Source: an uncultured archaeon (GTDB lineage Archaea; Asgardarchaeota; Lokiarchaeia; Sigyniarchaeales; SOKP01). From it: a stretch of DNA of 64,000 nucleotides. The translations under genes were made by a program, and so were the position numbers. Position 1 is the stretch's first letter. Every line of letters starts with the position of its first letter. The notes beneath the pieces were generated by a model. That model saw only the letters and a program-made list of their open reading frames with translations. It did no database searches and was not told the DNA's origin. Below are positions 40,154 through 42,166 of the stretch, piece by piece. The DNA is taken from the NCBI GenBank assembly GCA_964486045.1, contig CAZALK010000014.1:64001-128000 (forward strand), given 5' to 3'.

Positions 40154-42166
40154 ATGCCAGAACAAATGTGTCGTTTTTGCCAGAAGCATGTTCAATTAGC
40201 TTATTATTGTGAGGAGTGTGGTGTTAGCTGTTGCTCTGATTGCTTGCACGAGGGAAAGGTCGATTATTATGTGTGTAGGGGTTGCGGTTCAAAAAGTGTG
40301 GGGGATAAGAAGGTAAAAGTGTGTCAGGAATGCGGAGAGGAGAGCATCACCAAAGAGATTATGAGTTTAAAATCATGCCCAAAATGTGGTTCTCACAAAA
40401 TAATTAATATTTATGAGAAAAAAGAAGAACTAGAGAAAAGTTTCTTAGACTTAATTAAACACTCTCGGTCTTTTATTAACCCACTAAAAGAAATTCTCGA
40501 TAAATTATTTATTCTGCAACAAAAAATCAAAAAAGCTCGAGATCCTCCTATTAGATGTTATCATTTTCCCAAAATGGAATCTGACCTATTAGCTCTTTTT
40601 AAATTATTTATTTACGTTCAAAATACTTTATATGATAAAATTCGGGCTCTCTACAAGCAGATGGTGCTAAATCAAAGCTATTTCCTTGATATTTACTCTC
40701 AACCTAACACCAATATTACAATTATAGAAAATCTACTTGATAATTTACTACGAAGTTACAATTCAATAAAAATCTTTATTGATAACAATGTAGATACCTT
40801 TAAAGGGAGTGTCAATTCTTTTGAAAGCAATCTAAAATTCATCAAAAAAATCAGCTTGTATTTTTCAACCTATAAGAATTTTTTGAACCTAGCGGACAAA
40901 GAAAAACCGGTGTATGCCATTTACGCGAAATTGACAAATGGGTTAAACACGGAAGAGAAACTTAAGAAAGATAAGGGAATACTATTTATTACAAATTTAG
41001 ATTTATCCTTTGTTCACGAGCATGGTAGAAGAAAGAAGAAGCAAACTTTAACTTTTAAAGCTCCTGTTCGAGATTTAATAAGAATCAGGGATAAAGGAAA
41101 ATTTTTCAAGAAGCTGTACATAGAATTTGAGTATGGAAAATACGAATTTACGTTTCCTCCTAAATCAATCAAAATCAATCAAATCATTGAGTATATTCTT
41201 CTATCTAGAAATTTTGATGAAACTACAGTCTATGATAGCAAATCCGCTTCTAAACTTCAAAGAATTGATATTGACTTAAACAGTTTAACAGAGTTCATTG
41301 AGGAAAGTATTAATTCATTTTTTAGCTTAAAATGCCAGTATAATAAGAGTTATGAAAATGGCAATAACAATAAAATTCCACCTCAAAATCCTAACCTATA
41401 TCCCAACCAGATTCAAAATACAATTCCTCAGAATTATCAACAAGGTATGTCTTACCAAAATCCTAATTTTGGACAATTTCAAATTAACCAACCAAGAATG
41501 CAAAATATAAATTATCAAAATTCACCTTATCCTCCACCTGCTCCTGTTCAACCCTCCCAAGGTTTTAATAACTATGTAAATCCAATAAACCAATATCAGA
41601 CATATCCTCGTTATGAAAGCAAATTCTTCCAACAAAATGTATACAATCCAAACAGGTACCAAAATTATAATCCCCAAGCAAATAATAATAACCTTGAAGA
41701 AATACTTGAATTTGATGAAAGTAATATTCTATCAAGAAATTTAAATCAACCCCAAAGATTCAATTCACAAAGTCCGAATGCTATAACTCATGATATGCTT
41801 GGTGATAAACAATTTCAAGAATATAACAAAAATCATTTATCTGAATTATTCAATTCAAGTAATTCCTTAACACAGCAACCGTATGGATATAAGAGAAAGC
41901 TGTTTAAATTAGATAGTGAAAAACAAAAAAAAATGCTTGAACTACAAAAAGATCATTATAGTCTTAAAGCAACATTGAAAAAACTTGAATCAAAATTTGA
42001 TCAAGGATCAATATCAGAAAGCGATTATTTTCGAACTTACAGGAATTTGAATAAAGAGATTTATCTAATCGATAATAAAATTCAAACCTTAAAACAAAAT
42101 CTAGAAGAGTTAGAATCAATTAAACAAAGTAGTAGGAATTTTGATAATAAAGGTTTTTATACTTAG
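40154..42166 (+). CDS. Multidomain protein: FYVE/B-box-like Zn cluster, coiled coil, GRAM/PH-like domain, Q/N/P-rich linker, ESCRT-I-like C-terminal hairpin
   Basis: Six CxxC pairs; KGILFITNLDLSFVH; low-complexity region about 41350-41880; KLESKFDQGSISESDYFRTYRNLNKE. CDS is certain; domain calls are inference. Confidence 0.65.
   Translation: MPEQMCRFCQKHVQLAYYCEECGVSCCSDCLHEGKVDYYVCRGCGSKSVGDKKVKVCQECGEESITKEIMSLKSCPKCGSHKIINIYEKKEELEKSFLDLIKHSRSFINPLKEILDKLFILQQKIKKARDPPIRCYHFPKMESDLLALFKLFIYVQNTLYDKIRALYKQMVLNQSYFLDIYSQPNTNITIIENLLDNLLRSYNSIKIFIDNNVDTFKGSVNSFESNLKFIKKISLYFSTYKNFLNLADKEKPVYAIYAKLTNGLNTEEKLKKDKGILFITNLDLSFVHEHGRRKKKQTLTFKAPVRDLIRIRDKGKFFKKLYIEFEYGKYEFTFPPKSIKINQIIEYILLSRNFDETTVYDSKSASKLQRIDIDLNSLTEFIEESINSFFSLKCQYNKSYENGNNNKIPPQNPNLYPNQIQNTIPQNYQQGMSYQNPNFGQFQINQPRMQNINYQNSPYPPPAPVQPSQGFNNYVNPINQYQTYPRYESKFFQQNVYNPNRYQNYNPQANNNNLEEILEFDESNILSRNLNQPQRFNSQSPNAITHDMLGDKQFQEYNKNHLSELFNSSNSLTQQPYGYKRKLFKLDSEKQKKMLELQKDHYSLKATLKKLESKFDQGSISESDYFRTYRNLNKEIYLIDNKIQTLKQNLEELESIKQSSRNFDNKGFYT

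Follow-up and report, generated by a model that had tools for sequence, protein, structure and literature searches.

The closest described system is the Asgard protein family Znr_CC_PH_SB (cog.011556, also written Znr_PH_CC_SB), whose members combine three Zn ribbons, a helical ("CC") region, a PH domain, and a steadiness box (SB), and which has been proposed as a likely component of ESCRT-I, with the PH domain binding membranes (Makarova et al. 2024, mBio 15:e00335-24, PMC10936438). The Lokiarchaeum GC14_75 locus of this family is given in Table S2 of the same study as PepD, L35Ae, Znr_CC_PH_SB (650 aa), MetE, Vps20(-), DHQS, Mer, and GH57 (PMC10936438). Three other ESCRT-associated proteins resemble members of this family in part, namely, Vps23/TSG101, which shares the SB, Vps36/EAP45 of ESCRT-II, which also pairs a PH fold with Zn fingers, and CdvA of Crenarchaeota.

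We analyzed a gene in a 64,000-nucleotide stretch of an archaeal contig, referred to here as the window. The 670-aa protein that it encodes is a member of Znr_CC_PH_SB, an Asgard-specific family, and its Lokiarchaeial orthologue: domain order, the 12-Cys module, the PH domain, and the SB are all as published for the family, and the gene order in the window is that of the Lokiarchaeum GC14_75 locus, except that L35Ae and the Znr_CC_PH_SB gene are separated by three additional small genes. The original prediction had presented the protein as a candidate for an undescribed ESCRT adaptor. Both the family, under this name, and the idea have, however, already been published (Makarova et al. 2024, PMC10936438), and the window provides one further orthologue and nothing categorically new. 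A 650-aa LCGC14 homologue shares 60% identity with the window protein over the full length; judging from its length, source, and synteny, we infer that it is the published GC14_75 entry As_004-p_01543. The UniRef label of the Lokiarchaeum homologue is SB domain-containing protein. Nothing essential distinguishes the published Lokiarchaeum member from the window copy, in which the Q/N/P-rich linker is somewhat longer (670 versus 650 aa for the whole proteins). More than 260 full-length homologues were retrieved; in an alignment of 52 sequences, the start MSEQxCRFC was read as common to homologues. The family is nearly universal across the phylum, with a match in 378 of 400 genomes (E <= 1e-5). 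The features of the gene and its neighbour are compiled in Table 1. What had been predicted for the protein, i.e., a Zn cluster, a helical region, a GRAM/GLUE-type PH domain, a low-complexity linker, and a Vps23-type hairpin, was borne out by sequence profiles, AF2 models, and structure comparison.

Table 1. Positions in the window of the Znr_CC_PH_SB gene, its parts, and the neighbouring ESCRT-III gene
Feature	Residues	Position (nt)	Strand	Evidence
Znr_CC_PH_SB gene	670 aa	40154..42166	+	One ORF, ATG 40154 to stop 42166
Zn-binding cluster	6-78	40169..40387	+	Six CxxC pairs
Helical ("CC") region	86-243	40409..40882	+	AF2 blocks, pLDDT mostly 82-95
PH domain, GRAM/GLUE-like	about 250-353	40901..41212	+	AF2, Foldseek, VIA
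Two post-PH helices with conserved INSFFSLKCQYN	362-404	41237..41365	+	Alignment, AF2
Disordered Q/N/P/Y-rich linker	405-578 (174 aa)	41366..41887	+	AF2 pLDDT <50, composition
Linker island 1, FFxQNxxxPNRxQNYxP	491-507	41624..41674	+	Majority residue >=80%, 52-sequence alignment
Linker island 2, NHLSxxF	560-566	41831..41851	+	52-sequence alignment
Steadiness-box hairpin	578-665	41885..42148	+	Pfam Vps23_core aa 584-639; AF2; Foldseek
ESCRT-IIIB (Vps20/32/60-like) gene, convergent with the Znr_CC_PH_SB gene		43308..43967	-	Snf7 PF03357, E 1.3e-10

The protein begins with six CxxC pairs (C6/9, C19/22, C27/30, C41/44, C57/60, and C75/78), and the predicted spacing C-x2-C-x9-C-x2-C-x4-C-x2-C is exact for the first three of them. 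All 12 Cys residues are conserved at 90% or more in 57 homologues, most of which are just 18 to 30% identical to the window protein. The six pairs presumably form three Zn sites. Going by the sequence, the first part of the cluster appears to resemble a B-box, and its last two pairs together would be a classical Zn ribbon; the published description terms the same modules Zn ribbons (Makarova et al. 2024, PMC10936438), and several homologues are named "B-box zinc finger protein" by NCBI. The first Cys pairs share the spacing of B-box fingers, including the ANCHR-like B-box, whereas the window protein has a further CxxC where the B-box has its final His ligands. The Pfam family zf-B_box gave no match for the window protein itself; it matched 14 of the 57 members below threshold, ANCHR-like_BBOX matched 7, and Zn-ribbon models matched several. 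Searches against PDB profiles, whether with the whole family or with the Zn module by itself, returned only insignificant matches, those of the Zn module being a mixture of B-box, RING, and Zn-ribbon proteins. A FYVE finger, the other likeness that had been suggested, was rejected: the protein has no match to FYVE; the 57 members together match 31 Pfam families, and FYVE is not one of the 25 that occur most often; and the R(R/K)HHCR basic patch is, as had been pointed out, absent from the protein sequence.

The long helical region that follows consists of three confidently modelled helices (residues 86 to 129, 141 to 172, and 188 to 243 in AF2), for which the structure search found nothing specific but only generic helical bundles. 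In the AF2 model of the whole protein, built from 52 close homologues, the PH region had a pLDDT below 50, which rose to 91 when residues 236 to 410 were refolded with 71 more diverse sequences. The refolded model comprises seven strands followed by a C-terminal helix, and KGILFITNLDLSFVH (residues 273 to 287, nt 40970 to 41014) lies within it. All Foldseek matches of this model at E <= 0.001 were PH-type folds, with the Lam6 GRAM domain at the top and the Vps36 GLUE domain in rank 9, and VIA gave Z scores of 13.5 for Lam6, 13.4 for MTMR2, and 11.5 for the EAP45 GLUE domain (2hth_B). The predicted beta-rich unit is thus a PH fold, with GRAM and GLUE domains as its closest structures. The best structural neighbours are the GRAM domains of Lam6/Ltc1 and the myotubularins (Z 13.3 to 13.5, rmsd 2.4 to 2.7 Å, 106 to 109 residues), which match better than GLUE domains and share the G-x-L-x-I-T strand; however, identity is 11 to 15%, the window protein has no significant sequence match to them, and the domain context is unrelated. 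At the level of Pfam, bPH_3 was matched by 23 of the 57 members and exceeds its cut-off in several members of the family, and GRAM and Vps36_ESCRT-II were matched by 8 and 2 of the 57, respectively, all below the cut-off, though close to it for Vps36_ESCRT-II. The window protein also differs in layout from Vps36/EAP45, in which the Zn fingers are inserted into the PH domain rather than placed ahead of it and in which the C terminus is formed by winged helices instead of an SB.

The stretch rich in Q, N, P, and Y, predicted at about 170 aa, was confirmed and is modelled as disordered. Q and N account for 36% of its residues but for 10% of those outside it, and P and Y make up 11.5% and 8% of the stretch. 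Its length and sequence vary among Loki-class genomes, and in the other Asgard lineages sampled the protein is about 140 to 200 aa shorter (open frames of 474 to 543 aa). The motif YPPPAP is indeed present in the linker but is not conserved among homologues. Two conserved islands (Table 1) are candidate short linear motifs, as suggested by the alignment. The late-domain or ESCRT-recruiting motifs P[ST]xP, PPxY, YPxL, NPF, MIM1, and MIM2 were looked for in the linker, and none was found.

The C-terminal DHYSLKATLKKLESKFDQGSISESDYFRTYRNLNKEIY lies in a helical hairpin (helices at residues 578 to 616 and 622 to 665, AF2 pLDDT about 90), which had been predicted to be of the ESCRT-I type. Two lines of evidence agree with that assignment: (i) the only Pfam match of the protein is to Vps23_core (E 5.7e-4), although at 20.3 bits it is below the cut-off of 26.8, as is the best (26.3 bits) of the matches found in 13 of the 57 members; and (ii) the hairpin superposes on the C-terminal part of yeast Vps23 (2f6m_C) with a TM-score of 0.87, an rmsd of 0.7 Å over 57 columns, and 21% identity in Foldseek, where the search with the whole model gave nothing at E <= 0.001 and the Vps23-C matches stand out by TM-score and probability only. 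The best match among PDB profiles is also yeast Vps23, at an insignificant E value of 0.33. Hairpins of two helices are simple enough, however, for a superposition to arise by chance. The tail behind the hairpin, RNFDxKxFYT, is conserved in close Loki relatives. Apart from the hairpin, a Pro/Gln-rich linker occurs somewhere in both the window protein and Vps23/TSG101. In contrast to Vps23/TSG101, the window protein has no UEV domain and no P[ST]AP-type motif, and its N terminus is made up of Zn fingers and the PH domain; moreover, the stalk helix of eukaryotic Vps23 continues directly into the SB, whereas here the PH domain and the 174-aa disordered linker intervene. As to ESCRT-0 (Vps27/HRS and STAM), its VHS, FYVE, and UIM domains had no Pfam match in the protein or among the 25 families most often matched by the members, and P[ST]xP is lacking from the sequence.

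The Snf7-domain gene that had been noticed close to the adaptor gene was confirmed (Table 1). Its product matches PDB entry 9fn1_U, "Vps20/32/60-like protein (ESCRT-III)," with an E value of 7e-108, and rather than an orphan, as it had been called, it represents the canonical ESCRT-IIIB paralogue of Asgard archaea, found in its conserved place. Linkage across Asgard genomes was found as well: of 80 Loki-class loci, 71 have the two genes arranged tail to tail, and of 10 other Asgard families sampled, 8 show this convergent arrangement and 2 show no adjacency. The Loki-class neighbourhood is collinear throughout, housekeeping genes included, and because of this collinearity the Loki-class count, taken by itself, provides weak evidence of function. 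Elsewhere in the genome, a cluster contains genes for EAP30 (Vps22; 237 aa, contig 9), Vps25, Vps4, and ESCRT-IIIA. A Vps28 (215 aa) that includes the N-terminal part is encoded on contig 5 amid housekeeping genes; Znr_CC_PH_SB is thus linked to ESCRT-III and not to Vps28. The genome encodes a further SB-like protein (539 aa, contig 7), which had no match in Pfam, PDB, or Atlas. Pfam UEV matched nothing in the genome, and candidates for Vps37/Mod_r were rejected as chance-level matches elsewhere in the genome, the same search being positive in 11 of 14 control genomes.

Given these data, the protein is probably a single-chain, membrane-proximal subunit of the ESCRT-I type. The membrane-binding ESCRT-I-type adaptor put forward in the original prediction agrees with what has been proposed for Znr_CC_PH_SB (Makarova et al. 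2024, PMC10936438), and none of the outcomes named there as refuting it was observed, since the hairpin fits Vps23-C, the middle domain is of the PH type, and adjacency to an ESCRT-III gene recurs across the phylum. The same prediction has the protein take the place of a UEV subunit and act in an ESCRT-0-like manner. In the mechanism that we infer, the Vps23-type SB hairpin would pair with the hairpin at the N terminus of Vps28, and it might also engage other SB proteins; the product would be an ESCRT-I-like headpiece. Contact with the membrane, and perhaps with ubiquitin or cargo, would be made by the GRAM/GLUE-like PH domain and the triple-Zn module, both carried on the rigid helical region. 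Both ends would be tethered by the flexible linker, which is rich in Q, N, and P and is expanded in the Loki class; its two conserved motifs may bind partners. The resulting complex would feed into ESCRT-II and ESCRT-III, and the conserved convergent neighbour suggests that Znr_CC_PH_SB is functionally tied to ESCRT-IIIB.

The same neighbour can be read differently. With the PH/Zn head on the membrane, the protein might recruit or nucleate ESCRT-IIIB directly, in the absence of an ESCRT-I/II relay, much as CdvA recruits CdvB in Crenarchaeota, and the contact would then be made by the SB/CdvA-like hairpin, the linker motifs, or the C-terminal tail. CdvA is likewise a membrane-binding recruiter whose gene adjoins one for ESCRT-III, the CdvA hairpin and the SB have been proposed to be homologous (Makarova et al. 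2024, PMC10936438; Lu et al. 2023 preprint), one of the 57 members has a weak Pfam match to CdvA, and the conserved genomic partner throughout the phylum is ESCRT-IIIB, tail to tail, and not Vps28 or ESCRT-II. We nevertheless regard direct recruitment as rather unlikely, since Vps23_core fits the hairpin better than CdvA does, convergent genes are not cotranscribed, and a relay could form from the complete set of Vps28, Vps22, and Vps25 in the genome. Furthermore, the ESCRT-IIIB of Asgard archaea has no winged helix of the kind to which the E3B peptide of CdvA binds (see also Makarova et al. 2024, PMC10936438). The PRC barrel of CdvA and its C-terminal E3B peptide, which binds the winged helix of CdvB, were not found here (PRC-barrel had no match). 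A variant restricted to a single genus also bears on this question: it has EAP30 winged helices instead of the SB, and its Zn fingers, PH domain, and two winged helices reproduce the layout of Vps36. No description of it was found in the text of the two papers on Znr_CC_PH_SB. The gene of this variant has stayed close to an ESCRT-III gene, which suggests that the N-terminal head and the ESCRT-III link are the constant part. An unlikely extension of this thought is that the Zn-CC-PH head is a portable membrane or cargo module of Asgard ESCRT with ESCRT-IIIB as its constant partner, which would make the protein a CdvA-like direct nucleator of ESCRT-III and not a classical ESCRT-I subunit.

It is improbable that the Zn/PH head chiefly binds ubiquitylated cargo instead of lipid, as in ESCRT-0 or the GLUE domain of Vps36, with the SB handing this cargo to ESCRT-I. 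The PH fold does resemble ubiquitin-binding GLUE domains (2hth_B, Z 11.5; 2cay_B in Foldseek), but GRAM-type domains outscore them with a Z of 13.5. A ubiquitin receptor may be needed, because Pfam UEV finds nothing in the genome; however, VHS, UIM, and FYVE had no Pfam match in the protein or among the 25 families that the members match most often. On reading the sequence, the third and fourth Cys pairs are spaced C-x2-C-x10-C-x2-C as in RanBP2/NZF fingers, for which there was a weak Nup153 match (E 0.83), whereas of the NZF signature neither the Trp that precedes the first Cys nor the T-F/Asn motif is present. We consider it highly improbable that the protein has no role in ESCRT, in which case it would be a scaffold of Zn fingers and a PH domain that ends in a generic coiled coil, in a neighbourhood reflecting only inherited synteny. 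The SB is below the Pfam threshold and collinearity in the Loki class extends to housekeeping genes, as such a scaffold would have it; against this stand the fit of the hairpin to Vps23-C, the adjacency seen again in 8 of the 10 distant families, where the neighbour scored was ESCRT-III, and the variant that carries an EAP30 domain of ESCRT-II where the SB would be.

[quoted passage not shown] For the family as a whole, with an ESCRT-I-type subunit as the favoured reading, the question at stake is how Asgard ESCRT-I reaches the membrane or cargo without ESCRT-0, Vps37, or Mvb12; in the archaeal system from which eukaryotic membrane remodelling descends, no part is less well understood. Since Znr_CC_PH_SB is nearly universal, combines a PH domain with an ESCRT-I assembly element, and is linked to ESCRT-IIIB in the genome, it is a good candidate for this membrane-targeting step.

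The window (G+C content, ~30%) is part of contig 14 in the genome of a Loki-type Asgard archaeon (5.18 Mb; completeness, 99%). The product of the adaptor gene contains all of the sequence features from which an undescribed ESCRT adaptor had been predicted, namely, (i) six CxxC pairs with the noted spacing, (ii) the sequence assigned to a beta-rich unit, (iii) a Q/N/P/Y-rich region, and (iv) a terminal pattern that was recovered exactly as quoted. The coordinates of these and other features are listed in the table below. More than 260 full-length homologues, labeled Promethearchaeota or Lokiarchaeia, were found, and 12 of the 12 Cys residues are at least 90% conserved across 57 aligned members, which for the most part share only 18 to 30% identity with the window protein. 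The number of full-length homologues and the conservation of the Cys residues in distant members indicate that these sequence features are not due to chance.

The family, however, is not undescribed, as had been supposed. It corresponds to Znr_CC_PH_SB (cog.011556) of Makarova et al. (mBio 2024, PMC10936438), who consider it "a likely ESCRT-I component" with a PH domain "expected to be membrane associated"; according to these authors, it is present in several Asgard lineages, absent from eukaryotes, and likely ancestral. The supplementary neighborhood table of that study gives the locus of Lokiarchaeum GC14_75 as PepD (C69), L35Ae, Znr_CC_PH_SB (11247..13199, 650 aa), MetE, a Vps20-family ESCRT-III gene (-), 3-dehydroquinate synthase, Mer, and GH57, and the gene order in the window is identical. 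The LCGC14 marine-sediment metagenome contains a 650-aa homologue, named "SB domain-containing protein" in UniRef, with 60% full-length identity to the window protein. Lu et al. (bioRxiv 10.1101/2023.07.25.550441) also treat cog.011556 as a steadiness box (SB)/Vps23-box group, and a full-text literature search turned up neither another paper on the family nor any experiments with it. The observation is thus confirmed and the predicted domain biology is largely right, for a family that is already known.

Features of the adaptor locus, the window protein, and related loci
Feature	Location	Strand	Remarks
PepD	window 35963
L35Ae	window 37415
Three inserted small genes	window 37805-39417
Adaptor ORF	window 40154-42166	+	670 aa, single ORF
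MetE-like gene	window 42247-43266
Snf7 (ESCRT-IIIB)	window 43308-43967	-
DHQS	window 44101
Mer-like ORF	window 45241	-	named by position in published table, without Pfam scan
ORF in GH57 position	window 46495		named by position in published table, without Pfam scan
Six CxxC pairs	C6/9, 19/22, 27/30, 41/44, 57/60, 75/78		window protein
KGILFITNLDLSFVH	from aa 273		window protein, beta-rich unit
Q/N/P/Y-rich stretch	aa 405-578		36% Q+N, 11.5% P, 8% Y
FFxQNxxxPNRxQNYxP	aa 491-507		conserved linker island
NHLSxxF	aa 560-566		conserved linker island
DHYSLKATLKKLESKFDQGSISESDYFRTYRNLNKEIY	C-terminal end		window protein, terminal pattern
EAP30-variant gene	L102:8401-10206 (G298 contig 138, 83400-85202)		proteins P0216, P0251, P0252
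Longin-GTPase gene	L102:6465-7322	+	285 aa
Second SB-like protein	L093:1492-3111	-	539 aa
Vps28_C-like protein	L004:10-1806 (G000 contig 10)	+	598 aa

To assign the domains, the 57 members were scanned singly against Pfam and the window protein was modeled with AF2 using 52 close homologues. Matches were obtained with bPH_3 (23 members, several of them above its cut-off), zf-B_box (14 members), Vps23_core (13 members; top score, 26.3 bits), GRAM (8 members), ANCHR-like B-box (7 members), Vps36_ESCRT-II (GLUE) (2 members), and EAP30 (1 member). Cys pairs one to three are covered by the sub-threshold B-box matches and the remaining pairs by Zn-ribbon matches. The FYVE reading is not supported; a profile search of the PDB gave only insignificant matches for the Zn module, which was modeled at moderate confidence. 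It is followed by three long helices (residues 86 to 129, 141 to 172, and 188 to 243; block pLDDT mostly 82 to 95). The PH region was poor in the whole-protein model, and refolding of residues 236 to 410 with 71 more diverse sequences resulted in seven strands and a C-terminal helix with a pLDDT of 91. All Foldseek PDB matches of this refold at an E value of ≤0.001 were PH-type folds, of which the Lam6 GRAM domain ranked first (E value, 1.3e-4) and the Vps36 GLUE domain ninth, and VIA-align gave Z scores of 13.5 (Lam6), 13.3 to 13.4 (MTMR2), 12.4 (BBS5), and 11.5 (EAP45 GLUE domain), in agreement with the GRAM/GLUE-type fold originally proposed.

The predicted ESCRT-I-type hairpin was also borne out. 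The two C-terminal helices (residues 578 to 616 and 622 to 665; pLDDT, ~90) superimpose on yeast Vps23-C (2f6m_C) with a TM score of 0.87 (target length) and an rmsd of 0.7 Å over 57 columns at 21% identity (Foldseek probability, 1.00), and the whole-model search matched 2f66_A, likewise yeast Vps23-C, with a TM score of 0.83; the shortness of the aligned stretch accounts for the weak E values of these matches. Vps23_core is the one near-significant Pfam match of the window protein (residues 584 to 639; E value, 5.7e-4; 20.3 bits with a cut-off of 26.8), and yeast Vps23 is the top PDB profile match of the family (E value, 0.33). Residues 404 to 578 were modeled as a disordered linker, which in the Loki-class alignment is variable in sequence and 184 to 246 residues long; homologues sampled outside this class have open frames of 474 to 543 aa. 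The YPPPAP motif noted in the linker is present in the window protein and not conserved in homologues, a motif scan of the window protein detected no P[ST]xP, PPxY, YPxL, NPF, or MIM consensus, and conservation of the tail RNFDxKxFYT is limited to close Loki-class homologues.

The Snf7 gene 1.1 kb downstream, initially regarded as an orphan, is an ESCRT-IIIB paralogue at a conserved place. Its product matches the Vps20/32/60-like ESCRT-III protein 9fn1_U over nearly its whole length (E value, 7e-108) and, more weakly, a Heimdall ESCRT-IIIB structure; since 9fn1_U is a solved structure, a structural template is available for this neighbor. The other Snf7 of the genome is CHMP2A/CHMP1B-like, corresponding to ESCRT-IIIA, and is encoded in the main cluster on contig 9 (EAP30/Vps22, Vps25, Vps4, ESCRT-IIIA), and Vps28 (215 aa) is isolated on contig 5. 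The genome also encodes a second SB-like protein, the C-terminal stretch of which (contig 7, 110174-110545 [-]) matches the SB part of the family profile (E value, 1.4e-8); it had no other match in Pfam, PDB, or Atlas and may be another ESCRT-I-type subunit. A further protein has several winged-helix/PCI-type domains (PCI, DDRGK, and E3_UFM1_ligase matches) and resembles Vps28_C at its C terminus (23.3 bits, with a cut-off of 24.5); multidomain Vps28_C proteins of this kind have been reported for Lokiarchaeia (PMC10936438).

Linkage with Snf7 across Asgard genomes, the test suggested in the original prediction, was observed. Among 80 related Loki-class loci fetched from genome collections, L35Ae is upstream of the adaptor gene in 78, usually at ~0.45 kb, and in 71 the adaptor gene is followed downstream by ESCRT-IIIB on the other strand, most exceptions being contigs that end too early. 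MetE separates the two in 41 loci; elsewhere it is absent and the ESCRT genes lie directly tail-to-tail. Since collinearity within this class extends to housekeeping genes, we turned to ten further GTDB families of this phylum and sampled one genome in each. A convergent Snf7-family gene adjoins the homologue in eight of them, with a gap of ~0.1 to 0.7 kb in seven and of 2.3 kb, which may hold other genes, in genome G117; seven of the eight genomes carry another Snf7-family gene on that contig, within ~5 kb. Homologues in the two families without this adjacency are the most divergent. Of 400 genomes examined from the phylum, 378 have a match to the family profile at an E value of ≤1e-5, and some families show only weak matches, probably confined to the SB. 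The linkage between adaptor and ESCRT-III is thus an old, conserved feature. In the window, three small genes separate L35Ae from the adaptor gene; their products are a Ras-like GTPase of 192 aa, a double Zn-ribbon protein of 92 aa, and a 121-aa Zn-ribbon protein with an apparently hydrophobic C-terminal part. None of them was found at this position in the 80 loci, in which the only matches were four Ras-like ones, located on the opposite strand ~7 kb upstream.

In one Asgard genus (three of three genomes), the family has a variant in which the Zn cluster is followed by the helical region, the PH/GLUE-like domain, and, in place of the SB, an EAP30 (Vps22/36) winged-helix domain (E value, 1.8e-11). 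No other gene of these three genomes contains the Zn-CC-PH head, a separate Vps22-like EAP30 gene is ~8 kb away, and a convergent Snf7 lies ~0.6 kb downstream with an SSB-like gene in between. The variant is most simply explained as a lineage-specific domain swap, and its layout of Zn fingers, PH domain, and winged helices is like that of eukaryotic Vps36. About 1 kb upstream, beyond one phosphoesterase gene, a protein is encoded that joins a longin-like domain at its N terminus (Fuz_longin_1, 27.2 bits) to an Arf/Ras-type GTPase domain.

The best-supported model is a refinement of the published ESCRT-I proposal; the analysis establishes the folds, their conservation, the membership of the family, and the linkage of the genes, and we infer all interactions. 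The SB hairpin would pair with Vps28, and perhaps with other SB proteins; borne on the rigid helical region, the PH domain of GRAM/GLUE-like type and the triple-Zn module would bind membrane and possibly ubiquitin; and the flexible linker would carry docking motifs. The main rival is a CdvA-like protein that recruits ESCRT-IIIB directly, which is favored by the identity of the conserved neighbor, an ESCRT-III gene rather than Vps28, and by the homology proposed between the SB and CdvA hairpins. That the protein acts as a ubiquitin receptor, or outside the ESCRT system altogether, is less likely. The EAP30 variant shows that the Zn-CC-PH head can work with cores of both the ESCRT-I and the ESCRT-II type. 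The family is an attractive experimental target, to which the window adds only one more orthologue.
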